Positions 30,837 to 56,090 of a stretch of DNA of 64,000 bases are shown here, in pieces. The number at the start of each line of letters is the position of its first letter. Position 1 is the stretch's first letter. The stretch comes from Chloroflexota bacterium. GTDB taxonomy: Bacteria > Chloroflexota > UBA11872. The position numbers and the translations under genes were made by a program. The notes below the pieces were generated by a model. It saw only the letters and a list, made by a program, of their open reading frames with translations, searched no databases and was not told the DNA's origin. The DNA is taken from positions 70,848-134,847 of the forward strand of contig JAJDZD010000072.1 of assembly GCA_022824865.1 (NCBI GenBank), read 5' to 3'.

Positions 30837-30973
30837 AGTCGGGTCTGAGACCCGCCTCGATCGTCCGCCGCCCAACTCCGTTCGTGGTGAGCCGGCCCGT
30901 AGTCTTCGAAGGGCCGTGTCGAACCACCGGCACGGAGCCTGACCCTGGCCAAAGAGCCCCCTCAAACCACCCG

Positions 30974-37997: not shown

Positions 37998-39667
37998 GAG
38001 CCTGTTTCATAAAGTGGGTGGTGTTGCGTGACGGCGCCGCCGGCCAGCGGGCCGGCGTGGGTGGAGGTGAGGGGGTATGCCGCATCGACCGATGAGCCGC
38101 GAGCAGCAATGGCTGCTGCCTCCGAGCCTGGACGAGCTGGTGCCGGCCGATCATCCGGCCCGCTTCGTGGCCGAGTTCGTCGATGCCCTCGACGGCGGCG
38201 CCTGGGCTGCCATGGGCATCGACCTCGCCGGGGATCCCCTGGGCGCGCCGGCCTACCACCCGCGGGCGCTGCTGAGTGTCTGGGTGTACGGCTTCATGAC
38301 CGGGGTCCGGTCGAGTCGGAAGTTGGAGGCGGCCTGCCGGGAGCAACTGCCGTACCTGTGGCTGACGGGGTGCCAGACGCCGGATCACATCACCTTGTGG
38401 CGGTTCTACGCCGTCCATCGAGCCGGGATGCGGCAGCTGTTCACGCGCACGGTCCGGATGGCGCTGCGGCTGCAGCTGGTGGCGTTGGCGGTGCAGGCCG
38501 TGGACGGCACCAAAGTCGACGCCAACGCCAGCGGGGCCCGGACCTACGATTCGGCGGGGCTGCGCCGGCTGCTGGACCGGGTGGAGGGCGCGATCGACGA
38601 CCTGGAAGCGCAGCACGAAGCGGGCGACGAGCCGCGGCCAGCCCGGCTGCCGGCGGCCTTGGCCACCCGGCGGCGGTTACGCACGCAGGTGCGGACGGCC
38701 CTCGCGACGCTGGACCAGCCCACGTCGCCCACGCGGATCAATCTGACCGATGCGGACGCGCCGCTGATGAAGACGCGGCAGGGGGTGCGGCCGGCCTACA
38801 ACGCCCAGGCGATGGTCGCGCCGGTGGCCCGGGGGGCCGCGGGCGGCGGCCGCCTGATCACCGCGGTCGCGGTGGTGGATGACCCGGCCGATGCGGCGCA
38901 GTTGCCGCCCATGCTGGCGCAGGCCGAGGCCGCGACCGGTACGCCAGCGGACCTGACGGTGGCCGATGCGGGCTATCACTCGGGGGCGGCGCTGGCGGCC
39001 TGTGCGCGCCGCGGCCACCGCGTGGCCATGCCGGAGGCGCAGGCGCGGGCCCTGCAGCAGCCGTATCACAAGGACCGCTTCAGCTACGAGGCGGCGCGCG
39101 ACCGCTATCGCTGTCCGGCCGGGCAGTGGCTGCGCTTCACGCGCACGAAGACCACGCAGGGCACCGCCATGCGGCTCTACCGGGCCTCCGGGGCCGTCTG
39201 CCGGGCCTGTCCGGCCTTCGGAATCTGTACGACCGACGGGCGGCATGGACGCGGCTTGGAAATCGGGCCGCACGACGCCCTGCTACGGCGGCATCGGGCC
39301 TGGATGGCCACGCGCGCGGCCCAGCACTGGGTAGCGCAGCGCCCGGCCCTCGTCGAACCCGTCTTCGGCATCATCAAAGACCAGCAAGGGGCTCGCCGCT
39401 TCCTGCTGCGCGGGCTGGCCAATGTCAAGGCCGAGTGGGCCCTGCTCGCCACCGCCTTCAACCTGCGCACGCTCTGGCGGCTCTGGCGGGCGCCACCCAC
39501 CGAACCCGCCGGGTGGGATGCGGCGATGACCACCGCTGGCGCGCCCGCCTAGCCCCCGGTGACGCCTCAGCGCGTCGGCGCAGCCTCGTCACATCGCCGG
39601 AAGCCACCCGTCCAGGCCGCACGATGGCGTGAGCCTGCCCCCTGAATACGCCTAATGAAACAGGCTC
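37998..39667 (+). mobile_element. IS element (1670 bp), IS5/IS1182-family, with 13-bp terminal inverted repeats and 4-bp CTCT target-site duplication
   Basis: TIR GAGCCTGTTTCAT at 37998-38010 and its reverse complement ATGAAACAGGCTC at 39655-39667. CTCT at 37994-37997 and 39668-39671. Removing the element plus one CTCT regenerates the REP hairpin GGGCGGGTCTCTGACCCGCCC. Confidence 0.7.
38077..39552 (+). CDS. DDE transposase, IS5/IS1182 family (DUF772-type N-terminus)
   Basis: 491 aa. N-terminal LPPSLDELVPADHPARFV and WLTGCQTPDHITLWRF. DDE region with DAGYHS. C-terminal LLRGLANVKAEWALLATAFNLRTL is typical of this family. Confidence 0.8.
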   Translation: MPHRPMSREQQWLLPPSLDELVPADHPARFVAEFVDALDGGAWAAMGIDLAGDPLGAPAYHPRALLSVWVYGFMTGVRSSRKLEAACREQLPYLWLTGCQTPDHITLWRFYAVHRAGMRQLFTRTVRMALRLQLVALAVQAVDGTKVDANASGARTYDSAGLRRLLDRVEGAIDDLEAQHEAGDEPRPARLPAALATRRRLRTQVRTALATLDQPTSPTRINLTDADAPLMKTRQGVRPAYNAQAMVAPVARGAAGGGRLITAVAVVDDPADAAQLPPMLAQAEAATGTPADLTVADAGYHSGAALAACARRGHRVAMPEAQARALQQPYHKDRFSYEAARDRYRCPAGQWLRFTRTKTTQGTAMRLYRASGAVCRACPAFGICTTDGRHGRGLEIGPHDALLRRHRAWMATRAAQHWVAQRPALVEPVFGIIKDQQGARRFLLRGLANVKAEWALLATAFNLRTLWRLWRAPPTEPAGWDAAMTTAGAPA

Positions 39668-40987: not shown

Positions 40988-43936
40988 ATGCCCCGCACCG
41001 CCGAACACACCGTCAACGTCGAACTCGCCCGCCTCCTGCGCACTAGGCACCCGCGTTGGCGCAACGGCATCGGCGTTGAACAGACCGGCGTGCTGGCCGA
41101 CGCCCCCGCCCAGCGCCCCGACATCCTCATCCAGCATCCCGGCGGCCTGCCCGTCGTCATCGAGACCGAGTACCGCCCGGCTCGCGAAGTTGAACAGGAC
41201 GCCAGCAGCCGCCTCGGCGCGGTCGTCGCGGCCACCGGCGAAGCAATAGAGCAAGCCGTCGCCCTCCGCGTGCCCGTGGAACTCCGCGGCGTCAACCAGG
41301 CCCAACTGCCCCAACGCGTCGCCGAGGCCGCCTTCGACTACTGCGTCTTCACCGAGGGTGCCGAAGGCCCCGACCGCTGGCCCGCCAGCGGCTGGCTTAC
41401 CGGCGGCGTCGACGACCTCGCCGGCTTCATTGAACACACCGCCCTATCGGAGCGCCGCATCGCCCGCGGGACCTTAATTCTTGAAGTCGGCGTTCGTCAG
41501 GCCGCGGGTCGTCTTGAGGCCATGCTGCTAGAACCGGAAGGGATATTGGGCCGACGAGCGGCCGTCCTGCACCAGCAGCCCGGAGAGCAAACCGAGCGCA
41601 TGGCCATGGCGATCGTGGCCAACGCCATGACCTTTCACGCCACGCTCGTCGCAGCCAAGCTTGATGTCCGCTCGTTCGACGATCTGCGCCGGGATTCCTC
41701 GCTCAACCGTCTGAGCCGATCCATAGTCCTCGGGGAATGGCGCCGAATCCTCAGGGAGATCAACTACTGGCCGATCTTCCGGATTGCCGATGAGCTCATG
41801 TCGCCGGTCTCGGCCCGCGAAGCCTCGTCAATCCTCGAGCACTTGGCCAAAGTCGCCGACGAGCTGCACCAAATCGGCACGTCCACCACCCACGACCTCT
41901 CCGGCCAGATGTTCGGCCGTCTGATTACGGACCGGAAGTTCCTGGCCACCTTCTACACGCTTCCTGCCTCCGCCTCGCTACTGGCCGAACTGGCGGCGAC
42001 TCGTCTCGAAGTCGATTGGGCGGATTCCGTAGCTTTCACCGACCTGCGGATTGCCGATCTGGCCTGCGGCACCGGTGCCCTGCTGGCCTCGGCTTACCGC
42101 GCGGTGGCGTCCCGCCATCGCCGCGCCGGCGGCGACGATGCTCCGCTCCACGCAACCATGATGGAGCACTCACTCATCGGTGCCGACATCATGCCGGCCG
42201 CCTCCCACCTCACCGCCTCCACGCTCTCCAGCGCGCATCCCGGTGTGCCGTTTGATCGTACCCGCATACACACCATGCCCTACGGCGACCCAGAGCCTGA
42301 CGATCCCAGCGGGCGCGGTACCGCCATCGGCTCCCTGGATCTGATCCTCAGCGACGCCCAGCCGTCCCTCTTCGGTACCGGCCAGCACGCCGTCCGGGGC
42401 CGCGACCCGTCCCTAAGCGCCGAATCCTCGCCGGCGCATGTGCGGCAGGGCGACGAACTTCATGTGCCCCAGGGCTCGGTTGATCTCATGATCATGAATC
42501 CACCGTTCACCAGCCCGACAAATCACGCAGCGCAAAATAATGTCCCGATACCTTCGTTTGCTGGATTCGCCACCGGCGAGGACGAACAGCGAAGGATGTC
42601 GGAGGTACTCCGAGAGATTCGGAGGTGCCTGGAGCATCCTGTAGGTCACGGCAACGCCGGCCTCGCTTCCAACTTCATTGACCTCGCACACGCGAAGACA
42701 AAGCCGGGCGGGGTGCTCGCCCTTGTCTTGCCGCTGGCGGTGGTCTCAGGAAGCGCATGGTCATCGGCGCGGCGGATGCTGGCCCGCGACTACAGCGATC
42801 TGATAATCGTCACGATCGCGGCCGTCGGTGACACTGATCGTGCGTTCTCGTCGGACACCAGCATCGGCGAGGCGCTCGTTGTCGCAACACGGCGGGATGG
42901 CCCGGTCCACACAGACGAATCTGCGGCCGAAACGCTCTATGTGAGTCTCGGCAGGCGACCGCAGAGTCTGGCTGAGGCATCAGAGATCGCCCGCGCGGCT
43001 CGTTGTCTGCCAGATTCAGGTGGCGGGCTCTTTCAAATCGGTGACGAGACAGTCGGCTGTTTCATCCGCGCCACACTTGCTGACAGCGGATGCGCTGCGG
43101 TGCGTGAGCCGGGTGTCGCACAAGCTGCGCTTGCGGTGAGAGAGGGCTCGTTGCGCCTGCCTCGTATGCGCGAGGCGCACTCTTTGCCAATAGCTCTGCT
43201 GGCTGAACTTGGCCACCGCGGGCTGGTTCACCGCGACATCAACGGTAGAAACTCTGACGGTTCTCCCCGTGGCCCCTTCGATGTCATGCCGCGACTCGGC
43301 GCGGCGTCGGCGTACCCAATGCTCTGGCAACACGGCGCTAAACGTGAGCGGCGGCTCCGCGTAGAACCGGATACGGAGGGCCGCGTTCGGCAAGACTGTG
43401 AAACCAAAGCCATTGACGTATGGGAAACAGCAACTCGGCTCCATTTGACCCTGGACTTCCGCCTCAACTCGCAAAGCTTGGCCGTCTGCCTCACCCCCGA
43501 ACCTTCGATCGGAGGCCGAGCCTGGCCTAACTTTCGGCTATTGAACGCCGCAGGCGAAGAGGCGGTCGCGCTCTGGGCGAACAGCACCTTGGGACTGATG
43601 AGCTTTTGGTTGACTGGCGGGCGCCAGCAGCAGGGTCGCTCGATCATGACCATTTCTCAGTTGCCCGAACTGCCAACACTCGACGTACGCCAACTCAGCA
43701 TGGAACAGATCGAGCGATCCCACCGCATCTTCGCCGACTTCCTCGACTATGAATTCCTCCCCGCCAACGAGGCCTACCACGACCCTGTCCGCCAGGCACT
43801 CGACCAGGCCGTCCTCATCGACCTCCTCGGCCTCCCCGAATCCATCCTCGATCCCCTCGCCCTCCTCCGCCTTCAATGGTGCGCCGAACCCACCGTCCAC
43901 GGCGGCAAATCCACTAAGCCCCCTGAGCTACCGTAG
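40988..43936 (+). CDS. Large N6-adenine DNA methyltransferase fused to an HSDR_N-like nuclease-fold N-terminal domain (Type IIG/IIL-like single-chain restriction-modification candidate, 982 aa)
   Basis: N-terminal RPDILIQHPGGLPVVIETEY resembles the HSDR_N PD-(D/E)xK-fold domain, but the Lys is replaced. Motif I LRIADLACGTGALL. Motif IV VDLMIMNPPFTSPT (NPPF). I-then-IV order indicates gamma class. About 450 aa of C-terminal domain could be a target-recognition domain. Confidence 0.65.
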   Translation: MPRTAEHTVNVELARLLRTRHPRWRNGIGVEQTGVLADAPAQRPDILIQHPGGLPVVIETEYRPAREVEQDASSRLGAVVAATGEAIEQAVALRVPVELRGVNQAQLPQRVAEAAFDYCVFTEGAEGPDRWPASGWLTGGVDDLAGFIEHTALSERRIARGTLILEVGVRQAAGRLEAMLLEPEGILGRRAAVLHQQPGEQTERMAMAIVANAMTFHATLVAAKLDVRSFDDLRRDSSLNRLSRSIVLGEWRRILREINYWPIFRIADELMSPVSAREASSILEHLAKVADELHQIGTSTTHDLSGQMFGRLITDRKFLATFYTLPASASLLAELAATRLEVDWADSVAFTDLRIADLACGTGALLASAYRAVASRHRRAGGDDAPLHATMMEHSLIGADIMPAASHLTASTLSSAHPGVPFDRTRIHTMPYGDPEPDDPSGRGTAIGSLDLILSDAQPSLFGTGQHAVRGRDPSLSAESSPAHVRQGDELHVPQGSVDLMIMNPPFTSPTNHAAQNNVPIPSFAGFATGEDEQRRMSEVLREIRRCLEHPVGHGNAGLASNFIDLAHAKTKPGGVLALVLPLAVVSGSAWSSARRMLARDYSDLIIVTIAAVGDTDRAFSSDTSIGEALVVATRRDGPVHTDESAAETLYVSLGRRPQSLAEASEIARAARCLPDSGGGLFQIGDETVGCFIRATLADSGCAAVREPGVAQAALAVREGSLRLPRMREAHSLPIALLAELGHRGLVHRDINGRNSDGSPRGPFDVMPRLGAASAYPMLWQHGAKRERRLRVEPDTEGRVRQDCETKAIDVWETATRLHLTLDFRLNSQSLAVCLTPEPSIGGRAWPNFRLLNAAGEEAVALWANSTLGLMSFWLTGGRQQQGRSIMTISQLPELPTLDVRQLSMEQIERSHRIFADFLDYEFLPANEAYHDPVRQALDQAVLIDLLGLPESILDPLALLRLQWCAEPTVHGGKSTKPPELP

Positions 43937-44084
43937 ATTTTTCCGTCGCGCACTCAATTCCAGCAACGAAACGGAAGAGAACGATGGTGATCACTTGACA
44001 CCAGGCACGAATCCTAGCGACTCATCTATTTCGATACAGGACCTTCATGAAGATGAACTAGAGCATGTAATCAGAGTTTTTTCA

Positions 44085-45029
44085 ATGCGTATCGGATTGG
44101 ATCGGATCATCAAGAGCGCATCCGTCTCAAAGATTGTTCCAATAGACGATTTACTCGAAGCACTATCGTTGGATGAATGGCCAGCTGAAAGCGCAACACT
44201 TGACGAGCTTATATGGTGCTCGGAGCCACTCACACATGAGGACTTCAAGCGCTTACGTGAATATTCTGTGCACTGGCAGAAGACTAGTCAAGACTGGCGA
44301 CTTTGGATAGCTCGTGAGCCTTCGTTGCCGGCAGACGATAGAATGTTCTTTGACAAGCGTCGAATAATGATTAGTATATTCACCGTATATCGGATCTATA
44401 TAGATGCAGCGCATCAGAAACAATATCGATCCGCCCTGAGGCTTTGGCACCTAAAGAGATTGGCACCCACGATCCTTTTTACTGTAATTGTTCTAATTGT
44501 TATAGCCCTCAACAGCTGGCAGGCATCCGAGACGCTTACGCTGGATTTCTGGAAGACTATTCTGTTTCAGTACGTGGCATTTGGCGCGGTAATCTACACT
44601 TCACACTACATGACAGGAAAGCTCGGCTTTATCCACGGAGTGCTAACACTAACTGTCGTTTGGTTGTTCCCTTTCCACTTTTTCTTATTTGGAACGATTG
44701 AGGCTCTTGCAATCGACGTGCCACAATGGCAAACCGAACTGATGTCTTTAGGACTTAGCGTGCTAGTTGGGTTATTGATGGCGGAATTAAGGCACCCTTT
44801 AAAGAGCGTCAGTCAAATGCATTCAGAAGGCGGATGGGCGATAGTTTACAAAAATGTGTTGGCGACTCCGGCACTCGTGATGGCGCCGACCTACGGAGCC
44901 ATTAAGATAGTTGAATACTTGATCAGGGTATCGGTTCACAACAATCAGTTGGCAATTGTAGCAGTTCCTATCGGACTAATTGTCATCGTGGCGAGTGCGG
45001 AATTGATACGACGTGAGCTAAGTCGTTAG
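44085..45029 (+). CDS. Hypothetical membrane protein (N-terminal soluble domain plus 5 TM helices) encoded in an AT-rich insert
   Basis: First in-frame ATG after the upstream stop is 44085. GC content of 43937-45330 drops to roughly 45-48% against about 67% background. Five hydrophobic helices in the C-terminal 200 aa. Confidence 0.5.
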   Translation: MRIGLDRIIKSASVSKIVPIDDLLEALSLDEWPAESATLDELIWCSEPLTHEDFKRLREYSVHWQKTSQDWRLWIAREPSLPADDRMFFDKRRIMISIFTVYRIYIDAAHQKQYRSALRLWHLKRLAPTILFTVIVLIVIALNSWQASETLTLDFWKTILFQYVAFGAVIYTSHYMTGKLGFIHGVLTLTVVWLFPFHFFLFGTIEALAIDVPQWQTELMSLGLSVLVGLLMAELRHPLKSVSQMHSEGGWAIVYKNVLATPALVMAPTYGAIKIVEYLIRVSVHNNQLAIVAVPIGLIVIVASAELIRRELSR

Positions 45030-45289
45030 AAGGTGGGCTGAGCAATACAATGGATAGGAGGCTATAGCGACACGGATTGATAGACCGTGCTTTCAACGAC
45101 AGAATCGATGGAGATATGGCATTCGGACCGAAGCGTGAGCGCACAACGACTAACACTTGAGAAGATTGCAAACCACTCGAAGCGCAGAATGGATGAAATC
45201 GTTATATCCGTTGACTCTCGATCGATTCATAAGTCGAAGCGAGCGGTGCTCCCGTCGCTGAAGACTGGTTTCGTTCGTCGATTACGTGA

Positions 45290-45649
45290 TCAGCCTTCGA
45301 CTATCGAGTCAGGATGGCGGCAAGGAACCCTATAAATTCCAAGGACATTCAAGACGCTGACCAGCAGTAGGCTGACTATCCAGGTCTTGAGATTCTCAAC
45401 ATCGGCCTTTGTCGCGCACTGCCGAAACAATTCACCGCGGAGCCGATCAAACTCCTCGCGTAACTCCGCCCGCGTCAACGGCGGATCCCCGGCGTTCAAC
45501 TCGGCCGTTCGGACGCTTCCCCTCCTAAGTGGCGCAATCACCGCGCCCGCTGAAGGATTCCCAAGCTGCCCGAACAATCCTCTCGCTCGATCACACCCGC
45601 CCGACCCCGCCGGGACCTCGCCTCCACGCCGGCATCCCCGGCGCCGCAC
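45290..45649 (-). CDS. Small coiled-coil protein with C-terminal TM anchor, paralog A (start uncertain)
   Basis: Shares GNPSAGAVIAPLR...PLTRAELREEFDRLRGELFR.CATKAD...LK.W followed by a hydrophobic helix with 46706-46981. Its partner starts at the position aligned to Leu here, so a non-ATG start or the upstream ATG at 45649 are both possible. Confidence 0.45.
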   Translation of the reverse strand: MRRRGCRRGGEVPAGSGGCDRARGLFGQLGNPSAGAVIAPLRRGSVRTAELNAGDPPLTRAELREEFDRLRGELFRQCATKADVENLKTWIVSLLLVSVLNVLGIYRVPCRHPDSIVEG

Positions 45650-45704
45650 CGCCCCATCTATTCGCTTGATCAGTCAGGTCCGATAGACTGAATGACTCAC
45701 TTCG

Positions 45705-45980
45705 ATGCGAGTCCGTGAAATGGCCACGCTCCAGGTCGGCGTGCCTCCAAATGACCCCGAAGTCATGCTTGCCGAGATGCAACGCGAGCTGGATGACGTT
45801 CGTTGGATCGAGGACAACATGGCCGCGCTCGTCGAGGAGTACGGCATCAAGTTTGTCGCGGTCCGTCACCGCAAGGTTATTGGCTCGTCACACCGACTCA
45901 CCCTGCTTCTTGAAGACCTCAGGGAGCGCGACATTGCCCCAGGATCGGCCTCCATCGAAGTGCTCTACCGCCAGGAATAG
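45705..45980 (+). CDS. Small hypothetical protein (91 aa), upstream partner of a retropepsin-like protease
   Basis: Ends 6 nt before the protease ORF. No family recognised. Confidence 0.45.
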   Translation: MRVREMATLQVGVPPNDPEVMLAEMQRELDDVRWIEDNMAALVEEYGIKFVAVRHRKVIGSSHRLTLLLEDLRERDIAPGSASIEVLYRQE

Positions 45981-45986
45981 CCGACC

Positions 45987-46463
45987 GTGGCAATCCTTGG
46001 CACGGCAAGGCCTCCGAGCCCGGGGGCAAGTCCCGCGCCGTACATCCCTACCTGGGTCTACGCGCGCTACCCGGGAGCCGACAGGCGGCAGCACGTGACG
46101 GTTTCCTTCATGGTCGACACTGGAGCCGACCGAACCGTTCTGTCCCTTCGCAAGGCACGCGATCTCATAGGCGCCGATTGGAACGCTGTCTGTCAGACAT
46201 CCGTCACCCTCGAGGGCATTGGTGGTGCTCAGCCCTATTGGGAAGTTCCCATGCGGATCTGGTTCAGGGACGCCTCGGTCCAACGCTTTGTCTCTGTCGA
46301 GTCGCAAGTCCTGGTTCCGTTCTATTCAGAAGTTCAGGACTTGGCCGAACGCTCGAGTGAGCGCCGAGGTCGCGAACCGATCTCTTTACTGGGTCGCGAC
46401 GTCTTCGGCCACATGCGTCTCGAATTCGACCTTTCCCAGCCTGAGCAAGTAGTTCTGCGCTAG
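45987..46463 (+). CDS. Retropepsin-like (clan AA) aspartic protease, small single-domain bacterial/archaeal type
   Basis: FMVDTGADRTVLS contains the D-T-G-A catalytic signature of retroviral-type aspartic proteases. Size (158 aa) matches the small AF_0612-like family. LLGRDVF near the C-terminus is like the dimerisation strand. Confidence 0.55.
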   Translation: MAILGTARPPSPGASPAPYIPTWVYARYPGADRRQHVTVSFMVDTGADRTVLSLRKARDLIGADWNAVCQTSVTLEGIGGAQPYWEVPMRIWFRDASVQRFVSVESQVLVPFYSEVQDLAERSSERRGREPISLLGRDVFGHMRLEFDLSQPEQVVLR

Positions 46464-46705
46464 CGGCGGCCGTCAGTCGCCTCGGTGTCGCCGAGCCGAG
46501 GGCGAACTGCAAACGCGTGCTCAATTCGGATTACAAGACTCCCGATTAGGTCCCCGAAGCCATCGCGCACTAGACTATGACGATTGCGACTGGCTAGGTC
46601 TTGAAGGCGTTGCGGCCTGTAGCGCGATACTAACGGGCGATAAGCCTGTCCGCTTCGCGGTATCGGAAGTTCGCGAACTCCGCAATCATCGCCTGCCGCC
46701 GCGAC

Positions 46706-46981
46706 CTAGCGAGTCAGTAGAGTTGCGATTACCCCGGCCGTTCCAAGGAGATTAAGCACAACGACCAATAAGACACCAACCAGCCACGCTTTGAGATCCG
46801 CAAAGTCCGCCTTCGTCGCGCAGTGTCGAAACAGCTCACCACGGAGCCGATCAAACTCCTCACGCAACTCCGCCCGCGTCAGCGGGGCAGCCGAGGTCTT
46901 CGAGTCTGCCACTCGGACGTTTCCCTTCCTAAGTGGCGCAATCACCGCGCCCGCTGAAGGATTCCCATGCCGCCCGAACAA
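46706..46981 (-). CDS. Small coiled-coil protein with C-terminal TM anchor, paralog B
   Basis: MFGRHGNPSAGAVIAPLRKGNV...PLTRAELREEFDRLRGELFRHCATKADFADLKAWLVGVLLVVVLNLLG. Same architecture as 45290-45649. Confidence 0.5.
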   Translation of the reverse strand: MFGRHGNPSAGAVIAPLRKGNVRVADSKTSAAPLTRAELREEFDRLRGELFRHCATKADFADLKAWLVGVLLVVVLNLLGTAGVIATLLTR

Positions 46982-47299
46982 TCCTCTCGACCAATGCTAC
47001 CCAAACAACCCCGCCAAAGTTCCGGACGACCCCACCAGCGGTTCACCTTGATCGCAGCTGCGGCCGCTCTCAATCCCTTGTACCTTCCGCCGGCCTTGGA
47101 TTGACCAAGGCCACAGAGAGCGGGCCGGGACAGACCGAAAATCCCCGGGTCCGGTGAGACCGGAGGAGAGCAGGGTCGTCCCGGCCCTGACGCTGCCCCA
47201 GAGCCTGCAACCGCAAGGCTTAGTGCGGGGTCAACGTCCCTCGAGCCTACCCAATCGCCCCACCACCCCAAATCCCCGTCGGCATCCATACGCCCAGGC

Positions 47300-47400
47300 G
47301 CCACCCGCACCTCACCCCCAGCCCCCGACCCCATCCCATCCCTTTCCCTTCCCTTCCCCTCCCCCTCTCACTCCTCTGCCCTCTCCCCTCTACCCTTCTT
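47300..47400. repeat. Pyrimidine-rich direct repeat, copy A (about 100 bp)
   Basis: CCACCCGCACCTCACCCCCAGCCCCCGACCCCATCCCATCCCTTTCCCTTCCCTTCCCCTCCCCCTCTCACTCCTCTGCCCTCTCCCCTCT. Repeats at 47583-47685 with more than 90% identity. Confidence 0.7.
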
Positions 47401-47582
47401 CAAGTCCCCCACGTGCCACCGCCACCCTTGCCGGGACTGCCGGCACTCGCAGCACGGCCTGCACTGACTGCGTTGCCAGCAACGCTGGCAGCCCCCTGGT
47501 CGGCGACAGTCCGCCCACCACCCACCCGAAGGCCTTGCGGCCGGCGGGGTCCAAGTCTTCCCAAGCCCGCCAAACCTTCAAC

Positions 47583-47685
47583 CGCACGCGCACCTCGCCC
47601 CCAGCCCCCGACCCCATCCCATCCCTTTCCCTTCCCTTCCCATCCCCCTCTCACTTCTCTCCCCTCTCCCCTCTCCCCTTCCTCC
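47583..47685. repeat. Pyrimidine-rich direct repeat, copy B
   Basis: Second copy 283 bp downstream of copy A. The top strand is more than 90% C/T. Confidence 0.7.
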
Positions 47686-47801
47686 CCGGCACTTGAACCA
47701 GCCCATCGTTGACGCTTCAATTCACCCCGAGCCCCGATTGCCCGTTACCCCGGGGAGCTAACCCATTGCCCCGTCACCCCGGCCAACCTCTTGCCGAGGC
47801 C

Positions 47802-48428
47802 ATGGACGCCACTAGCGAGATAGGCCCAAGACTCTGGCTCTGGTGGACCCTTGCCACCGTCGCTGGCTGGGCCGTGGGCGAGTTCTTCTTCCGGGCGTCT
47901 GGTGAGTTTGTATGGGCTGCCATCCTGTTCAGGGGCGCCCACGTGCTGGGCGTCGGCGGGGCCGTGCTGCAAGCCCTTGTGCTTCGCCGGCATCTGCCGC
48001 GAGCCGCCTGGTGGGTTCTGGCAACCGGCGTTGCCGCCGTCCTGGGTGGTATCGCGGTGCTCGCCGCTATTGTCGACGTGCCCTACCTCACGCGAGGATT
48101 CGAAGTGCCGTCCATCGCGCTCATCCTGTTGTCCGTCCTTGCAAGCGGACTTCTCGTCGGCGCTTTCCAGTGGCTGATCTTGCGTCGGCACGTCGCTCGG
48201 GCTGGCTGGTGGGTTCCCGCCAGCGGCCTCAGCCTCACCCTCGGCTGGCTCGTCGGCGCCGTCGTGGTCGAAATCGCACTCGACCCCCGGTACCACCCCG
48301 CCGCAGTCGATCTAATCGCCGGCCTCGTGAGCGCCACCATCTACGGCGCCCTCACCGGCCATACCCTGTCTCGCCTTCTCCAATCCAGGAAGCCCAACCC
48401 CCACAACACCCAGCCCGTCCCGCACTGA
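47802..48428 (+). CDS. Hypothetical membrane protein with internal two-fold repeat (LRRH.xRAxWWV)
   Basis: Start chosen at MDATSEIGPRLWLWW. Two homologous halves each contain LxLRRHxxRAxWWV followed by TM helices. Confidence 0.45.
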   Translation: MDATSEIGPRLWLWWTLATVAGWAVGEFFFRASGEFVWAAILFRGAHVLGVGGAVLQALVLRRHLPRAAWWVLATGVAAVLGGIAVLAAIVDVPYLTRGFEVPSIALILLSVLASGLLVGAFQWLILRRHVARAGWWVPASGLSLTLGWLVGAVVVEIALDPRYHPAAVDLIAGLVSATIYGALTGHTLSRLLQSRKPNPHNTQPVPH

Positions 48429-48990
48429 CACCCCGTTCACGCCATCAGCGTCTCGATCGCTCAGCCCAACCCACCCGTCACGCCTAACCAACAGCCGACA
48501 AACCCCACACGCCGGCACAGCCCTCCACGCCCAGCGAGTTCACCGCACCCCCGGCACCCGTCGGTCACCCTGACACTTGCCCCTCGTCCTCCGAGAGTGT
48601 ACACTACTGGTACACCGTTCGCAACCTCACCCGGAGTCCCCATTGTCCACGCCACCAATCCGCCACCCACCATCGCCGGCCCCCGAAACAGCCGTCCGCG
48701 CCCAGTCGTCCAGCCCCCGGACCGCCATCAGCGCAGCGATTCGCCTGCTCTGGATCCTCCTCACCCTCACACCCCTCTCGCTCACCTGGATCCCCGCCAC
48801 TCTGGGTTTTCTCCCACCCGCGCTGCGCCCATCCCCCGACGCCGCCACTCCGCTCCCATCCCCGTCAAACCCACCCATCCACCCACCCCTACCCCACCGC
48901 CCAACCCCCGCATTGGCCTCGCCTCCCCGCACCAAATCGCCGCCCCCGAACGCCCTCCAGACCCCGCCAAAACACACCCCGCGCCGCCTC

Positions 48991-49014
48991 AAGAGTTTTT
49001 TGGAAAAAACTCTT
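48991..49014. promoter_or_regulatory. Perfect AT-rich palindrome AAGAGTTTTTT-gg-AAAAAACTCTT, 210 bp upstream of the isomerase/oxidoreductase/aminotransferase operon
   Basis: 11-bp inverted repeat with a 2-bp spacer, embedded in 65-70% GC pyrimidine-rich DNA. Candidate operator. It is a poor intrinsic terminator because the stem is AT-only. Confidence 0.4.
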
Positions 49015-49225
49015 ATGCGCGCGAGGCCCCCCATTTCGACCCCTCCAGCCACCCGCGTCAGCACCCACCCGCGGCTGCGGCCGCCGTTTCCCGTTCCTCC
49101 GTCCCCGTCTTCTCTCACTGCTCACTGCTCTCAGCTCACTCCTTCCGCCCCACCCGGCCTCGGTTGACATCCCACCCCACCCCGGCACGATTGACGCAGC
49201 CCGCATCCCGGAGCGCAACACCTCC

Positions 49226-50086
49226 ATGCCCTACCGCCTCGCCGCCCTCACCATCCCCTACGCCCGCGACGGCCTCTCCCGCCGCCGCGCCTACGCCGGC
49301 ATCGCCCGCGTCGGCTTCACCCACGTCGGTCTCTACGACCGCCACGACGAAGGCCCCCTCTGGCCCGATGGCGCCGATGCCTCCGCGGCCCGCGCCGCCG
49401 TCCAGCCCGCCCTTGACGCCGGCCTCCAGGTCGACCACAAGTCCCACGGCGGGGTCACTTCCGACCCCGGGGAACCCGAACGCTTCCTCATGGCCATCGA
49501 GCTCGCCGCCGAATCCGGCGTGCCCGCCCTGGTCTGCTGGGGCCCCTACGAATACCCGGCCGATGGTTTCCCCGACCATCCCAAGTCCGGTCCCGCCTGG
49601 CAGGCGGAGGTCGACGGCTTCTACGCCGCCTTTGAACCCGGCGTGCGCGCCGCCGAGGATGCGGGCGTCCTGCTGCTGCCCAAGCCCCACACGGGCGTCG
49701 GCAAGCACGGCGCCGCCCTGCGCGAGTTGCACGACCGCTTCGACTCGCCGGCGGTCGGCGTCTGTTACGACACCGGCAACGTCCACTATTACGAGGGCCT
49801 GGACCCGGTGGAGGACATCGCTCCCGTGGCCGGCCTCTGCCGCCAGCTCATCATGAAGGACCACATCGGCCCCCGCGGCGCGCCCGTCTTCCGCACTCCC
49901 GGCGACGGCGATATCGACCACCAGGCCGTCATTGCCAGGCTTGCCGCCGCCGGTTTCGACGGCACGCTGACCAACGAACGTGTGGACGTTTCGGGCGCCG
50001 AGGCGATCGACGTCGAACTCGGTCGCGCCCGCCGTCATATGCTGGCGGTGGCCGACGCCGCGTTCGGGGAGTCCACCGGTGCCTGA
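49226..50086 (+). CDS. Sugar phosphate isomerase/epimerase (xylose-isomerase-like TIM barrel)
   Basis: 286 aa with an AP-endonuclease-2/xylose-isomerase-like TIM-barrel pattern (metal-binding E/D/H positions, e.g. CYDTGNVHYYEG). Confidence 0.7.
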   Translation: MPYRLAALTIPYARDGLSRRRAYAGIARVGFTHVGLYDRHDEGPLWPDGADASAARAAVQPALDAGLQVDHKSHGGVTSDPGEPERFLMAIELAAESGVPALVCWGPYEYPADGFPDHPKSGPAWQAEVDGFYAAFEPGVRAAEDAGVLLLPKPHTGVGKHGAALRELHDRFDSPAVGVCYDTGNVHYYEGLDPVEDIAPVAGLCRQLIMKDHIGPRGAPVFRTPGDGDIDHQAVIARLAAAGFDGTLTNERVDVSGAEAIDVELGRARRHMLAVADAAFGESTGA

Positions 50087-51164: not shown

Positions 51165-52326
51165 CACCAGCACGTTTGCCAAGTTGAGGGAGGCGATTCC
51201 CGCCATCCGCCACTACCACTGCCTCAACTCGGGCGGCGTCGCGCCGACTCCGCAAGCCACGATCGATCTGCAGCAGGCGCTATACGACCGCGAAGCGGTT
51301 ATGACCACGACGAATCCCGACCTGCGTGAGATCTACAGCAAGGAACTCGCTGCGCTGCGAAGCGAAATTGCGGTGCTTATCAACGCCGACCCCGATGAGA
51401 TCGCACTCATCCGCGCCGTCTCCGAGGCCGTCTCATTCGTCGCCGCCGCCCTCCGGTTGCAGCGCGGCGACCGGGTCATCCTCACGGCCGCGGAGCATCC
51501 CAGCGGCTACCTGGCCTGGCTGACGCTGCGGGATCGGATTGGTTTGGAACTCGTGGCCATCGAAGCCGACGGCCATGACGATGCCTTTGTGAGCGACGTG
51601 GAAAAGGCGATGACGCCGAACACGCGCGCGTTCTGCCTGAGCCACGTCACCACGGAGCGCGGCATTGTGTTGCCGGTGGACAGGGTGTCCGCGCTGGCCC
51701 GCGAGCGCGGCGTCGTGACCGTGGTGGACGCCGCCCAGTCCTTCGGCGCTCGGCCCACCGACATGCGGCAGCTTGGCTGCGACGTGTACACCTTCCCCGC
51801 CTTCAAGTGGAGCATGGGTCCCTACGGCGTGGGCGCCATGTACGTGCGTCGCGACGCCCAGAAGCGTCTGCATCCCTGGGGCAGCGGGGCCGGGGCGGTG
51901 TCGCAGTCGAGCTTCCCGCCCGGCGAGGCCCATCTGCACGAGAACGCCCAGCGCTATGAGTTTGGGGCCCGGCCCTTTGCCCTCTACGCGGCCTGGCGCG
52001 CCTCGATCAAGATCCTCGGTGACCTGGGACTTGAAGCCATCCAGCAGCGCAGCGCGGCACAGGCGGCCGAGGCTCGAGCGGTGTTCAGCGACCTGCCCGG
52101 CGCCAGTATCCGAACACCCGAGCAAGGCGATGCGCGCTCAGGGATCTTCACGGTCGGGCTGGAAGGCGCCGACGGCATGGCGCTGGCCAACCACTGTCTG
52201 AAAGCTCACCGCATCCTCTGCCGAGCGGCGGACCATCACACGGCGGTGCGCCTCTCCTTCCACGCCTTCAACGACGCGAGCGACATCCAGGCGGCGGCCA
52301 ACGCCTTCGAGGACTTCCCGGCCTAG
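51157..52326 (+). CDS. Aminotransferase class V (cysteine desulfurase/isopenicillin-N-epimerase-like PLP enzyme)
   Basis: Start ATG 51157 overlaps the upstream stop by 8 nt. Fold-type I PLP pattern with a lysine in TFPAFKWSMGPYGVGAMYV. Confidence 0.7.
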   Translation: MADTSTFAKLREAIPAIRHYHCLNSGGVAPTPQATIDLQQALYDREAVMTTTNPDLREIYSKELAALRSEIAVLINADPDEIALIRAVSEAVSFVAAALRLQRGDRVILTAAEHPSGYLAWLTLRDRIGLELVAIEADGHDDAFVSDVEKAMTPNTRAFCLSHVTTERGIVLPVDRVSALARERGVVTVVDAAQSFGARPTDMRQLGCDVYTFPAFKWSMGPYGVGAMYVRRDAQKRLHPWGSGAGAVSQSSFPPGEAHLHENAQRYEFGARPFALYAAWRASIKILGDLGLEAIQQRSAAQAAEARAVFSDLPGASIRTPEQGDARSGIFTVGLEGADGMALANHCLKAHRILCRAADHHTAVRLSFHAFNDASDIQAAANAFEDFPA

Positions 52327-52814
52327 ACCCCGCGAATCTGCTCGAGGCTGCGGGCCATGGCGATGGCGGCAAGGGCCGCGTCGCCGCCGCGGTTGCCGAA
52401 CTTGCCGCCGCAGCGGTTGATGGCCTGCTCGACTGTTTCGGCGGTCACGATCCCGTAGATCACCGGCGTCTTGGAGTTCAGCGCCACCTGGGCGATTCCC
52501 CGCGCCGACTCCTGCGCGACGTGGTCGTAATGCGTGGTTTCCCCACGGATGATGCAGCCCAGGCAGATCACAACATCCGGCTTCTCGGCCTCGATCAGGT
52601 CCCGCGCCGCCACCGGCAACTCGAAGGAACCCGGAACCCAGGCGATCGTCTGGTCGCCCTCGGCCACGCCGTGACGCCGCAGTTCGCGCTGGCAGGCCTC
52701 CAACAGGTGGCTCACGAAGAACTCGTTGAAGCGCGCGGCGGCGATGCTCACCCGCAACCCTTCGCCGTCCAGCGGCGGATCGATCACTCGCGATTCGTTC
52801 GTTTGCTCGCTCAT
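52323..52814 (-). CDS. ribH: 6,7-dimethyl-8-ribityllumazine synthase
   Basis: Start ATG 52814 (MSEQTNESRV...). RVSIAAARFNEFFVSHLLEAC and WVPGSFELP lumazine synthase motifs. Overlaps the ribBA stop. Confidence 0.85.
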   Translation of the reverse strand: MSEQTNESRVIDPPLDGEGLRVSIAAARFNEFFVSHLLEACQRELRRHGVAEGDQTIAWVPGSFELPVAARDLIEAEKPDVVICLGCIIRGETTHYDHVAQESARGIAQVALNSKTPVIYGIVTAETVEQAINRCGGKFGNRGGDAALAAIAMARSLEQIRGV

Positions 52815-54004
52815 AGCTCGTGCCCCATTCGTGCGCGCTTGGTTTCCAGGTAGCGGCGGTTGTGCGCGCCCGGCTCCACTGCCAGTGGCAACTGTTCGAC
52901 GACCTTCAGTCCGTAGGCCCGGAAGCCTGCGGTTTTCTTGGGGTTGTTGGTCAGCAGGCGCAGGCCGCTGATGCCAAGCTCGCGCAGGATCTGCGCGCCG
53001 ACGCCGTAGTCGCGCAGGTCGGCGGCGAATCCCAGGTGACGGTTGGCGTCCACGGTGTCCAGGCCCCGATCTTGCAGTTCGTAGGTGCGCAGCTTGTTGG
53101 CCAAGCCGATGCCGCGGCCTTCCTGCCGCATGTACAGCACCACGCCGCGGCCTTCGTTGGCGATCCTCGCCAGGGCGGCGTCCAGCTGGTCGCCGCAGTC
53201 GCAGCGCATCGAGCCGAAGACGTCGCCGGTGAGGCACTCGGAATGCACTCGCACCAGCGGCGGCGAGTCTCCGGTCAGATCGCCAAGCGTCAGCGCCACG
53301 TGGTCTTCTCCGGTTGTCGTGTCATGAAAGGCCACGGCCTGGAAGGACCCACTGGCCGTCGGCAATTTGGCGGCGGCGACCTGATAGACGACGCGCTCAT
53401 TGGCCCGCCGGTGGTGGACGATCTGGCTGATGCGCACGACGGGGATGCGTGAATCGCCCGATGTCGAGGTCAGCCAGGGTTCCTGGAAGGCTGCGGCGTC
53501 CGGCGTGTCGACGTGTGAGAGCACGGCCACGGGCGCAAGTCCCGCCAGCACGGACAGGTCGACGGCGGCTTCAGTGTGTCCCAGGCGTCGGAGTACGCCA
53601 CCTTCGCGTGCCCGAATCGGCGTGACGGGACCTGGCGATTGGAAGTCGGCGCCATTGCGAATGGACGCCAGGGCCCGCACCACCGCGGCCGTTTGCTCGT
53701 CGCCGGTCGCCGCAGAATCGTCGGCGAGGCCCACGGATGCGGCCAGCGCCGGGCGCCGTGCCAGCGGGTCTTCCGAATCCGGCAGCTGTTCGGTTAGCCC
53801 AAGATCGTCGAGCCGGCGTGCGGCGGCAGGGGCGTAAATCTCGCCGTTGCCCAGGTCGCGCAGGTGGTTCAAGGTCTCGGCTCGCAGGTTCTCACCGGCT
53901 GCCACAACGTCCAGATCCGGTTGCGCCAGGCCGTCGTCGACGACCGCCACAATGCCGCCGCGCCTGATGCACTCAGTCGCGGTGGCAACCGCGTTGTGGG
54001 TCAT
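52811..54004 (-). CDS. ribBA: Bifunctional 3,4-dihydroxy-2-butanone-4-phosphate synthase / GTP cyclohydrolase II
   Basis: DHBP synthase N-half (VVDDGLAQPDLDVV..) and GTP cyclohydrolase II C-half with a CxxC zinc site (CLTGDVFGSMRCDCG). Confidence 0.9.
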   Translation of the reverse strand: MTHNAVATATECIRRGGIVAVVDDGLAQPDLDVVAAGENLRAETLNHLRDLGNGEIYAPAAARRLDDLGLTEQLPDSEDPLARRPALAASVGLADDSAATGDEQTAAVVRALASIRNGADFQSPGPVTPIRAREGGVLRRLGHTEAAVDLSVLAGLAPVAVLSHVDTPDAAAFQEPWLTSTSGDSRIPVVRISQIVHHRRANERVVYQVAAAKLPTASGSFQAVAFHDTTTGEDHVALTLGDLTGDSPPLVRVHSECLTGDVFGSMRCDCGDQLDAALARIANEGRGVVLYMRQEGRGIGLANKLRTYELQDRGLDTVDANRHLGFAADLRDYGVGAQILRELGISGLRLLTNNPKKTAGFRAYGLKVVEQLPLAVEPGAHNRRYLETKRARMGHEL

Positions 54005-54651
54005 CGTGTTTCGTCCAGCTTGTAGCCGGCGGCCCGCAACTGTTCGATGGATGGACCACTCTCTTGCTCGGGCTCCGGCACGCGTCCGTACTTGGCCAGG
54101 ATGTCGACTTCAAGGTTGGCCCGGTAGCCGATTGGCGCGTGGCCCAGGGTGACGGAACGCAACGTGTGCGGGATCAGAGCCACTGCGAACGTCGCTTCGT
54201 GCGGATCGACGACGGTCAGGCTTGCGCCGTCGAGCGCCACGAAGCCCTTGGAGACGATGTACCGCATGAGGTCCGGTGGGACGGCAAATCGCACGAGGTC
54301 CGAGTCGCCGTCAGGTTGGCGTTCGATCAGTTCGGCCGTGGCATCCACGTGGCCCTGCACGTAGTGCCCGCCCATGCGGTCGCCGTAGGCGAGCGGGCGT
54401 TCCAGGTTGACGGGACTGTCGACGGCGAGCTGACCGAGGTTCGTCAGTCGCAGAGTCTCGGGGACGGCCTCCACTGAAATCTCGTTAATCGTCACGTTGA
54501 CGGCGGTCAGGCAGGCGCCGTTGACCGCGATGGAGTCGCCGACGCGCACACCGCCGGCGCAGATGTCCGACCGAAGGGTGAGCCGGCGTAAGCCCTCGGC
54601 GTCCTCTAAGCGAACTACGCGTCCGAGGTCCTCAACGATGCCGGTGAACAC
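54001..54651 (-). CDS. ribE: Riboflavin synthase alpha subunit
   Basis: MFTGIVEDLG start and duplicated lumazine-binding half-domains (SLTV.. twice). Confidence 0.85.
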   Translation of the reverse strand: MFTGIVEDLGRVVRLEDAEGLRRLTLRSDICAGGVRVGDSIAVNGACLTAVNVTINEISVEAVPETLRLTNLGQLAVDSPVNLERPLAYGDRMGGHYVQGHVDATAELIERQPDGDSDLVRFAVPPDLMRYIVSKGFVALDGASLTVVDPHEATFAVALIPHTLRSVTLGHAPIGYRANLEVDILAKYGRVPEPEQESGPSIEQLRAAGYKLDETR

Positions 54652-54652
54652 T

Positions 54653-55738
54653 TCAGTTCACCGCCGGTCCGTAGCGCTGCAGGTCGCCCTCGATCAGGGT
54701 GTCCTCGCCGACGCTGCTCAGCTGCGGGCGGTCCAGCAGTGATTCGACATCAGCGGGCGCTGAGAGGCCGTCCCGCATGGTCCAGGGCGCGACGAAGACC
54801 GCTAGGCTGTCGACGGCGCCGGTGGCCAGAAATGCCCCGGTAAGGGTTGGTCCGGCCTCAAGCAGCACGGTAGAGAGACGAAGTGCGCCAAGGGCCTCCA
54901 ACGCTGCATTGATGTCAACGCGTCCGGCGGCTGTGTGCGGGCAGATCAGCACCTCAGCGCCGGCTTCGTTGAGTTGGCCGACGCGCTGGGATGGCACGGC
55001 TGCCGTTGTCAGTATGAGCGAGCGGCCGTCGTGACCAACGACTCGAGACGACGGCGAGGTGCGCGCCAGGGAATCAACAACCACGCGGAGGGGCTGCCGG
55101 CCGTCGGTGGGCGGCGGGCGCACGGTGAGGCGCGAGTCGTCGACCAGAATCGAATCGACGCCGGTGATGATGGCGTCGGCCGCGTTGCGCATTGCGTGGA
55201 CGCGCCGCCAGGCGGAATCGCCGGTGATCCGGCCGCCGCCGGACGGCCTGGCAACCTTGCCGTCTGAGGTCACGGCCCACTTGGCAGTCACGTAGGGACG
55301 GCCGGTGTCGGCGAGCTTGAAGTGACCCTGTGCGAGGTCGCTGGCCGCCCGCGCGCCGACGCCGGTCACGACTTGCACCCCGTGACCGCGCAGGTAGTCG
55401 AAGCCGCCGCCGCGGACTCCGGGGTTCGTGTCGGGAATCGCCGCGACTACGCGCCTGATGCCGGCGCGCAGGATCGCCTCGGTGCATGGGGGCGTGTGTC
55501 CGTGGTGATTGCAGGGTTCGAGCGTGACGGCCAGCGTGGCGCCGCGCGCGCGGGGACCGGCGGCCCGCAAGGCCATGACTTCGGCGTGGTCGCCTCCGGC
55601 TGGTTGGGTGGCGCCTTCGCCGAGGATGGTTCCATCGTTATCGACGACGACGGCGCCAACCGGTGGGTTGGGGTGCGTACGGCCCCGCGCCTGGCGCGCC
55701 ACATCCAGGGCACGAGCCATGGCGGACTCGTGTCTCAT
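54653..55738 (-). CDS. ribD: Bifunctional diaminohydroxyphosphoribosylaminopyrimidine deaminase / 5-amino-6-(5-phosphoribosylamino)uracil reductase
   Basis: CMP/dCMP deaminase zinc motif (HAEVMAL...PCNHHGHTPPC) and C-terminal RibD reductase domain. Confidence 0.85.
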   Translation of the reverse strand: MRHESAMARALDVARQARGRTHPNPPVGAVVVDNDGTILGEGATQPAGGDHAEVMALRAAGPRARGATLAVTLEPCNHHGHTPPCTEAILRAGIRRVVAAIPDTNPGVRGGGFDYLRGHGVQVVTGVGARAASDLAQGHFKLADTGRPYVTAKWAVTSDGKVARPSGGGRITGDSAWRRVHAMRNAADAIITGVDSILVDDSRLTVRPPPTDGRQPLRVVVDSLARTSPSSRVVGHDGRSLILTTAAVPSQRVGQLNEAGAEVLICPHTAAGRVDINAALEALGALRLSTVLLEAGPTLTGAFLATGAVDSLAVFVAPWTMRDGLSAPADVESLLDRPQLSSVGEDTLIEGDLQRYGPAVN

Positions 55739-55842
55739 TGCGGCGTGGGCGCTCTGGCGTTCGCTCAGGGCAGTCGTCAGGTCGCGGGCCCCCGACGCGT
55801 CGAACCGCCGGGGCGCGGACGTGCACGCGTAGCACGCCCACG

Positions 55843-55986
55843 GCGCCTTCTCCCTTCCGGACTGTACCGTCGGCTCCGGATTCGCACCGGATCAGCCGGC
55901 GAACGCCGGCTCGCGGGCTTGGCCTCGGGCCTCACCGCCGGTCGGGAATTTCCAGGCGCGAGCGCCGGGATCACCCTGCCCCGAAG
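55843..55986 (-). ncRNA. FMN riboswitch (RFN element) leader of the rib operon
   Basis: Minus-strand sequence reads GGGGCAGGGTGA..GGAAATTCCCGACCGGCGGTGAGG...GGTGCGAATCCGGAGCCGACGGTACAGTCCGGAAGGGAGAAGG. It contains the conserved RFN cores GGGCAGGGTGAAATTCCCGACCGGCGGT and GATTC.GAGCCGACGGTA.AGTCCGGA.GGGAGAAGG. Located about 105 nt upstream of the ribD start. Confidence 0.75.
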
Positions 55987-56090
55987 GCACGTATGTGCGT
56001 GGGTCAAGCATACGCCCGTGCATCGCGGCGTCCAATCGCCGCCGTATGCTCCGACAACGAACATACGACTGTCGGCCGGAGCGAGGCGTG

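Follow-up and report, generated by a model that had tools for sequence, protein, structure and literature searches.

The retropepsin-like APRc of Rickettsia, a single-domain clan AA protease, and the TIGR02281 (clan_AA_DTGA) proteins are membrane-anchored. Prokaryotic single-domain clan AA peptidases are widely distributed in alpha-proteobacteria and are also found in archaea, and as of 2009 it was stated of the soluble retropepsin-like enzymes among them that 'little is known' (PMC2642776). The retropepsin-type enzymes RimB and RloA of Pseudomonas cleave polyglutamate; RimB is cytoplasmic and removes polyglutamate tails from ribosomal protein S6, and the operon of RloA also encodes RloB, a transglutaminase-like membrane protein, and RloC, an ATP-grasp protein (bioRxiv 10.1101/2025.03.18.643919). 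Here we analysed a stretch of 64,000 nucleotides (nt) from a Chloroflexota bacterium (contig JAJDZD010000072.1; hereafter the window), in which a gene for a small DUF5678-like protein directly precedes a gene for a putative soluble retropepsin-like protease. We describe this pair as a portable two-gene cassette and tentatively interpret it as a toxin-antitoxin-like or defence-like module. An earlier note on the locus, made from the sequence alone, had called such proteases rare in bacteria, which is an overstatement in view of their distribution in alpha-proteobacteria (PMC2642776).

The window has a GC content of 65% and its nearest relatives are Chloroflexota metagenome-assembled genomes. 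The list of open reading frames (ORFs) contains four entries between 45290 and 46981, 45290-45649 (-), 45705-45980 (+), 45987-46463 (+) and 46706-46981 (-), and the two genes on the plus strand are bracketed by a 275-nt direct repeat (45337-45611 vs 46741-47015, 78% identity). The positions of the four ORFs, the DTGA motif in one of them, the 6-nt gap and the presence of duplicated units on both sides of the pair were all correctly given in the earlier note. Since conserved homologues of each of the three gene families (small protein, protease and flanking gene) exist in a collection of 5.8 billion proteins, we consider all three to be genes and not chance ORFs. DNA similarity to three related loci (L001, L003 and L005) starts at 45636-45664 and in none of them earlier, and the conserved block ends at 46514 compared to L001 and at 46468 compared to L003. 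Only 45636-46514 is common to the window and these loci. The unit is thus a two-gene cassette of ~0.85 kb (45636-46514) with the following parts:

45636..45719, plus strand: upstream region of the cassette, presumed promoter and 5′ untranslated region, delimited by the start of DNA similarity

45720..45980, plus strand: cassette gene 1, encoding an 86-amino-acid (aa) acidic DUF5678-like protein, from its homologues and transitive matches to PF18929

45987..46463, plus strand: cassette gene 2, encoding a putative 158-aa soluble retropepsin-like (clan AA) aspartic protease, from matches to PF13650 and RVP

46464..46514, plus strand: 3′ tail of the cassette with a GC-rich inverted repeat, from DNA conservation, the hairpin being read from the sequence

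The small gene stops at 45980 and the protease gene starts with GTG at 45987, which leaves 6 nt between them. No sigma-70 consensus was found in the upstream region. The inverted repeat in the 3′ tail reads CTCGG-N5-CCGAG (46481-46495), and no T-run terminator was found in this tail.

The D-T-G-A motif occupies residues 44-47 of the 158-aa protein. In Pfam, this protein scored 24.5 bits with PF13650 (Asp_protease_2), a marginal pass of the cut-off of 24.3 bits, and 23.0 bits with RVP (PF00077; cut-off 20.7). We aligned the window protein with 17 homologues (18 sequences). Within the catalytic motif FMVDTGADRT (residues 41-50), M42 and D44-T50 were invariant and F41 nearly so, DTGADRT being conserved in all 17 homologues. 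The flap motif GIGG (residues 77-80) and the LLGRD motif (residues 134-138) were invariant or nearly so, and both align to the corresponding motifs of the Rous sarcoma virus (RSV) and feline immunodeficiency virus (FIV) proteases. DTGADRT, GIGG and LLGRD correspond to the three signature motifs of retropepsins. When the comparison was extended to ten proteases encoded next to a DUF5678 gene, distant ones included, all ten carried D-[TSL]-G-[AS] and matched PF13650 (best 9.8e-7). A profile of the narrow clade returned only retroviral proteases from the PDB, and these weakly (E 0.12). The profile of the ten partner proteases matched APRc (PDB 5c9d) at E 2e-6, its best solved match, and RSV protease at 1e-5 over almost the full length (positions 23-136). 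It also matched the equine infectious anaemia virus and FIV proteases (1e-5 to 1e-4), the HIV protease and Ddi1. The suggestion of the earlier note that the DTGA ORF is a retropepsin-like protease was thus borne out by PF13650, RVP, APRc and RSV protease.

The protein has no transmembrane (TM) segment, its maximum Kyte-Doolittle hydropathy (KD19) being 0.69, and because of this lack of a hydrophobic segment it is predicted to be soluble and cytosolic. Of the two profiles that had been proposed for checking it, TIGR02281 gave 17.2 bits (cut-off 57.95) in the DTGA region only, with the N-terminal TM anchor absent, and TIGR03698 (clan AA protease, AF_0612 family) gave no match at E<=1 in NCBIfam. 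By its profiles the protein is placed in the retropepsin-like superfamily (PF13650), outside both TIGR02281 and TIGR03698. AlphaFold2 (AF2), run with the shallow 18-sequence alignment, gave a model with a predicted local distance difference test score (pLDDT) of 47, and a Foldseek search of the PDB with this model returned noise.

The small protein had been described as 91 aa long, starting at 45705. However, 86-87 aa is the length of all but two of its 35 close homologues, and these begin with MA(T/V); the two exceptions are a 58-aa fragment and a 96-aa call that contains an internal insertion. For this reason we place the gene at 45720-45980 and not at 45705-45980; the protein then has 86 aa, an ATG start at 45720 and an isoelectric point (pI) of 4.8. 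With the DUF5678 model PF18929 the window protein itself scored 12.2 bits (cut-off 23.2; E 0.17), and weak matches to this model (best 9e-4) were obtained for 12 of 21 close relatives. A clade profile searched against 1.84 billion representatives retrieved 144 proteins of ~80 aa; 39 of the 46 scanned relatives from this search matched PF18929 (best E 8e-10), and one of the relatives is named 'DUF5678 domain-containing protein' by NCBI. In addition, the small partners in L014, L018 and L021 carry the Pfam label DUF5678. By profile and transitivity we assign the small protein as a divergent member of DUF5678, which nevertheless falls below the Pfam cut-off itself and has a clade-specific N-terminal extension of ~12 residues.

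The AF2 model of the small protein (pLDDT 80) has the order alpha-alpha-beta-beta-alpha-beta, its first two strands forming a beta-hairpin and its third strand being terminal, and no solved structural relative of this model was found. When the DUF5678 profile was run against PDB sequences, designer pentatricopeptide repeat (PPR) proteins were obtained at E 5e-11. We rejected these matches as a repeat artefact, as they are sums of ~4-bit matches to the repeated 'eLl..L.ekgi.P' motif. The small protein is acidic in all ten pairs (pI 4.3-6.4), and this acidity speaks for binding to protein rather than to DNA. No DNA-binding family was detected in it with Pfam and NCBIfam, and nothing significant was found in PADLOC, NCBIfam or PHROGs. 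A literature search for DUF5678 returned a single paper that mentions the family, unrelated to the present subject, and no function was ascribed to it. DUF5678 also occurs as two to three tandem copies within single proteins (P0095, P0098, P0102 and P0147 are tandem or fused examples). In P0147 (313 aa) it is fused to a non-protease C-terminal region with a VFVEGxTD motif, which looks TOPRIM/OLD-like by eye only. The tandem copies and the P0147 fusion suggest that DUF5678 may be a reusable regulatory or partner module.

We next consider how far the two genes travel together. Eight Chloroflexota loci (the window, L001, L002, L003, L005, L006, L007 and L008) have the two genes next to each other and in the same orientation, with identities down to 37% for the small protein and 58% for the protease. 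A ninth, intact and much more distant pair is present in a Dehalococcoidia genome (L009). Among seven distant DUF5678 genes that were sampled, five have a retropepsin-like ORF directly 3′ (L014, L018, L021, L022 and L023). These ORFs encode 137-163 aa, lie between a 4-nt overlap and a 23-nt gap from the small gene, and carry D(T/L)G(A/S), a flap Gly motif and (L/I)(L/I/A)G(R/M/L)(D/N); three of them match RVP, Asp_protease_2 or gag-asp, and one is an uncalled ORF. The remaining two of the seven are solo genes; around them lie phage-like clusters of small genes that include Dam methylase, DUF5131, MazE or RNA ligase. The tight pairing of the protease with a small upstream ORF, which had been noticed in the window, is therefore real and conserved (nine Chloroflexota loci and five of seven distant ones). 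Over nine measured pairs, the spacing between the two genes ranges from -20 to +23 nt.

The surroundings of the cassette are not conserved. The ORFs within 6 kb on each side differ from locus to locus and are unrelated, even in L003, in which the cassette is 89-95% identical; the exceptions are a restriction-modification (RM)-like gene common to the window and L001, and synteny between L002 and L007. No constant third gene was found across the cassette contexts. Divergence at the larger distances is faster in the small protein (37-56% identity) than in the protease (58-65%). In L008 (6001-6496) the protease is split over two frames (117-aa and 87-aa ORFs) behind an intact DUF5678 gene, and truncated protease calls also exist elsewhere (P0018-P0020). 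These comparisons identify the DUF5678-retropepsin pair as a conserved, self-contained cassette that occurs in unrelated neighbourhoods and distant lineages. The pairing was found in none of the searchable literature and has no model in PADLOC, NCBIfam or PHROGs.

Compared with the described systems, the protease resembles APRc in being a single-domain clan AA protein, and its DTGA, Gly-rich flap and hydrophobic-hydrophobic-G-R-D motifs align with those of APRc. Unlike APRc and the TIGR02281 proteins, it is predicted to be soluble, scores below the TIGR02281 cut-off and is always preceded by a DUF5678 gene. RimB and RloA are likewise bacterial enzymes of the retropepsin type, and RimB is also cytoplasmic; this likeness was compared at the level of the shared superfamily, no DUF5678 partner has been described for them, and neighbours of the RloB/RloC type are absent at the cassette. 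Five of the ten partner proteases match the profiles of protein B of PDC-M08 (PDC-M08B), a candidate defence system in PADLOC (best 5e-5). The window protease reaches E 0.041 in the DTGA-to-flap region, which is not significant. No match was obtained between the PDC-M08A models and 46 DUF5678 proteins. The cassette thus has a B-like protease only, with a partner different from component A, and a literature search for PDC-M08 returned no describing paper. Like type II toxin-antitoxin systems, the cassette is a self-contained two-gene operon in which the small gene precedes the larger one, the two genes are tightly spaced or overlap, the contexts vary and include defence islands, and the small partner evolves faster. 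It differs from them in that the small protein has no recognisable DNA-binding fold. To our knowledge, no known toxin family is a retropepsin, and none appeared in the papers that were searched. Searches for retropepsins together with toxin-antitoxin systems and together with anti-phage activity returned nothing relevant. The cassette may represent an undescribed two-gene module of the conflict type with an unusual class of effector.

The genes on either side of the cassette had been taken as two paralogues of ~90 aa with a coiled coil and a C-terminal TM segment. In the minus-strand DNA on both sides we distinguish the following features:

46706..46912, minus strand: intact gene (GTG start, family alignment) for a 68-aa single-pass membrane protein, a neighbour and not a part of the cassette

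46913..47019, minus strand: conserved non-coding leader of the 68-aa gene, translated earlier as 'GNPSAGAVIAPLR' and interrupted between loci by a 2-nt indel

45290..45611, minus strand: degenerate second copy of the 69-aa unit, with the gene remnant at ~45290-45508 and the leader at 45509-45611

The family of the intact gene comprises 34 proteins, mostly of 69 aa (range 68-72 aa), which start with MADS... and consist of a conserved helix (LTRAELREEFDRLRGEL...ATKAD) followed by one C-terminal TM segment. In the window protein, which is 94% identical to the 68-aa protein P0056, KD19 reaches 2.57 at residue 44. The length of ~90 aa resulted from inclusion of the 'GNPSAGAVIAPLR' segment, which we regard as non-coding because a 2-nt indel between loci breaks its frame. 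This leader of ~95 nt is conserved across six aligned loci at least as much as the coding region (window 46913-47019 (-) and 45509-45611 (-); L001 7096-7190; L005 5127-5221; L011 and L012, both 4906-5003) and holds a GGCGC-N5-7-GCGCC hairpin. A structured RNA was considered and rejected, as the minimum free energy z-score was -0.1 and only two covarying pairs were present in six sequences; a scan of the leader with Rfam found no family. Possible roles of this stretch are those of a promoter or operator and of a recombination site; it could also be a leader of an undescribed type.

In the upstream copy, ACG takes the place of the ATG or GTG start of the other copies. A frameshift of 1 nt, 10 codons ahead of the stop, has abolished the second half of the TM helix; the old C-terminus (...AAILTR*) can still be read in another frame. 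Owing to the ACG and the frameshift this copy is a pseudogene. The architecture of a helix plus C-terminal TM segment thus holds for the intact copy, but the window does not contain two working copies. The earlier note had also likened these proteins to XhlA and other holin-associated proteins. The likeness is limited to the N-terminal helix and the single C-terminal TM segment: 27 members of the family gave no XhlA match in Pfam at E<=1 and no consistent family, there are no lysis genes nearby, and the genes border defence islands and not prophage lysis cassettes. PHROGs, PADLOC and NCBIfam yielded nothing significant for the 69-aa protein either.

A member of this family lies within ~1 kb of the cassette in the window, L001, L003, L005 and L025, the nearest subclade. 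In L002, L006, L007, L008, L009 and all five distant pairs the cassette occurs without it. Conversely, in L010-L013 and L026 the 69-aa family is found without the cassette, and its neighbours in such cases are GmrSD, methyltransferase (MTase)-like and AAA_13 genes. A metagenome scan with the 69-aa family gave two loci. Because each family occurs without the other, and because one copy is a pseudogene, the 69-aa genes are neighbours of the cassette and not components of it.

The wider surroundings of the cassette in the window include three further features:

40988..43936, plus strand: gene for a 982-aa RM-like methyltransferase fusion (PADLOC MTase_II 9.7e-11, mad2 2.7e-10; NPPF motif)

43937..45336, plus strand: low-GC insertion (GC 0.47 vs 0.65) with a multi-TM ORF at ~44082-45029

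38077-39552: transposase gene of the insertion sequence (IS) type with a DDE domain (DDE_Tnp_1_6/DUF772)

The 982-aa protein is 74% identical to the product of a 978-aa gene that adjoins the cassette in L001. In L001, the closest relative, the RM-like gene abuts the cassette and the 1.4-kb low-GC insertion is absent, whereas in the window this insertion and the pseudogene copy separate the two. For the multi-TM ORF of the insertion no match was found in Pfam, NCBIfam, PADLOC, PHROGs or, by tblastn, a phage collection. In comparison with L001, the low-GC insertion, the pseudogene copy and the IS transposase show that the region at 38-47 kb is a mosaic of acquired modules. At all informative loci, the 3′ side of the 69-aa gene is occupied by variable defence-type genes and its 5′ side by conserved metabolic genes. 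The window and L001 carry the RM-like gene and the cassette as 3′ cargo, L011 a paralogue of the RM-like methyltransferase (30% identical), L012 GmrSD, and L026 AAA_13 together with an MTase-HNH gene. This suggests that the 69-aa gene marks a hot spot of island integration, with the cassette as one cargo among others. We interpret the proximity of the cassette and the 69-aa gene as co-residence at such a hot spot and not as a functional connection, perhaps together with a duplication of the unit by tandem accretion; the upstream copy would then be a decayed duplicate left behind by island accretion.

What does the cassette do? The interpretation that we favour, with a probability of about 0.4, is that the DUF5678 protein restrains the protease and that the two form a toxin-antitoxin-like or defence-like module. 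Translation of the small gene followed by the protease 6 nt later would probably be coupled. The protease, as a cytosolic retropepsin, would have to homodimerise to build its active site and would be a potentially harmful effector. The acidic small protein may bind it and keep it inactive, either by blocking the cleft or by blocking dimerisation. Loss, degradation or titration of the small protein, for instance during phage attack, would release the protease, which could then cleave cellular or phage proteins. We base this proposal on the architecture and portability of the cassette, its defence-island setting, the faster-evolving small partner and the decayed protease genes, as well as on the PDC-M08B likeness, the solo DUF5678 genes in phage-like clusters and the DUF5678 fusion P0147.

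Several observations weigh against it. Neither protein is significant against PADLOC, the NCBIfam toxin-antitoxin families or PHROGs, and DUF5678 has no recognisable DNA-binding domain, which classical type II antitoxins usually carry. Housekeeping genes surround the cassette in L002 and L007. The split protease gene of L008 may reflect a long-read assembly error rather than a real pseudogene, and the protease fold is predicted from sequence profiles, the AF2 model (pLDDT 47) being unusable. Moreover, tblastn searches of phage and plasmid collections with the window protease, two partner proteases and two distant DUF5678 proteins found nothing, and a scan of viral contigs with the protease alignment gave no match. 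No copy of the cassette was thus found in the phage and plasmid collections searched, and classic plasmid addiction was not seen.

If the small protein does restrain a harmful protease, a broader proposition is that DUF5678-retropepsin cassettes constitute an unrecognised, widespread class of protease-based toxin-antitoxin or abortive-infection systems, for which the solo DUF5678 proteins of phages would act as counter-defence decoys. We regard this as a rather unlikely extension. Within it, the small protein would possibly mimic the dimer-interface strands of the protease with its own N- and C-terminal strands. Over their first ~12 residues the small protein and the protease are similar (MATLQVGVPPNDP vs MAILGTARPPSPG), with an empirical P of ~1e-3 to 1e-2 in three divergent pairs, and the likeness between the C-termini is not significant in the window. 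Mimicry of the terminal strands is speculation.

The occurrence of the cassette between ordinary metabolic genes in L002 and L007, and the lack of a defence or toxin-antitoxin model that matches either protein, would also agree with a housekeeping protease. In that case DUF5678 would be an adaptor or chaperone that delivers or selects substrates or aids folding or dimerisation, without any role in conflict, and RimB provides a precedent for a cytoplasmic bacterial retropepsin with a physiological substrate (bioRxiv 10.1101/2025.03.18.643919). For such a function, however, stable synteny would be expected, whereas the cassette is patchily distributed and has unrelated flanks even in close relatives. 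The position inside an RM/IS island in the window, the decay of the protease gene in some genomes and the solo DUF5678 genes in phage-like clusters fit it poorly as well, and we consider a housekeeping role doubtful. The order of the genes and their tight coupling would suit an enzyme and its substrate too: the small protein could be a precursor from which the protease releases a fragment or peptide, or a pro-segment acting in trans, and the N-terminal likeness described above could mark a common processing site. Yet this likeness is weak, restricted to the Chloroflexota clade and absent in the distant pairs, the C-terminal likeness is not significant in the window, and the conserved part of DUF5678 is modelled as a folded domain and not as a linear peptide. 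A substrate or pro-segment therefore appears improbable.

The earlier note had suggested that the protease could activate the flanking coiled-coil/TM proteins as holin- or XhlA-like membrane effectors. A 69-aa gene is indeed found within ~1 kb of the cassette in five loci, which is above the expectation for a random neighbour, and its product has a helix and a C-terminal TM segment as such an effector might. The distribution of the two families largely refutes this proposal, since the gene is absent from the ten cassette loci listed above and occurs free of the cassette beside GmrSD, MTase-like and AAA_13 genes. In addition, one of the two window copies is a pseudogene, none of the 27 members scanned matched XhlA or, consistently, another Pfam family, and cassette and 69-aa unit form separate blocks of DNA conservation. 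We consider a protease-activated membrane effector highly improbable, and restraint of the protease by the DUF5678 protein remains the reading that we prefer.

Some further features of the window were noted. A 100-nt polypyrimidine repeat is present at 47302-47401 and 47585-47684 (93% identical, spacing 283 nt) within a C/T-rich stretch (47154-47700) that gives rise to proline-rich pseudo-ORFs. After each copy, the minus strand has an ORF that begins with MGSGAGGEVRV. A candidate Guanidine-II (mini-ykkC) motif at 47125-47187 (-) scored 21.5 bits against a gathering score of 32 and is probably a chance match; its first hairpin has an ACGR loop (GGGACGACCC) and its second does not. The plus strand shows a strong and sustained negative GC skew (to -0.33) at 16000-38000 and 46000-50000, which far exceeds that in the rest of the window and goes together with C-rich intergenic and coding sequence. 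Dispersed repeats were found as three copies of 'CCGTTCGTGGTGAGCCGG...CCGTGTCGAACCAC', which look hairpin-forming (17594-17659, 30878-30943 and 31283-31348), four copies of 'CTCACTGCTCTCAGCTCACTCCTTCC' (32635, 39855, 40875 and 49095) and a 94-nt pair (34374/39668). These short repeats may be elements resembling repetitive extragenic palindromes (REP) or miniature inverted-repeat transposable elements (MITE). A flavin mononucleotide (FMN) riboswitch at 55841-55992 (-) lies upstream of a riboflavin operon with ribD, ribE, ribBA and ribH (52323-55738), and a tRNA-Sec gene is located at 62700-62793 (-).

The 69-aa gene with its leader appears to be a landmark for a defence-island hot spot in these Chloroflexota, which would be useful in the mining of uncultured lineages for new systems. 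The cassette itself spans Chloroflexota and several unrelated metagenomic lineages. The pairing gives DUF5678, a family without an ascribed function, a concrete predicted role as partner or regulator of a dimeric aspartic protease, and it points to a new candidate effector of the protease type for toxin-antitoxin or anti-phage biology. Control of retropepsin dimerisation by a small protein would also be of interest to research on retroviral proteases. If the broader proposition of a widespread class of such systems is true, it would be the first conflict system with a retrovirus-type aspartic protease as its effector.

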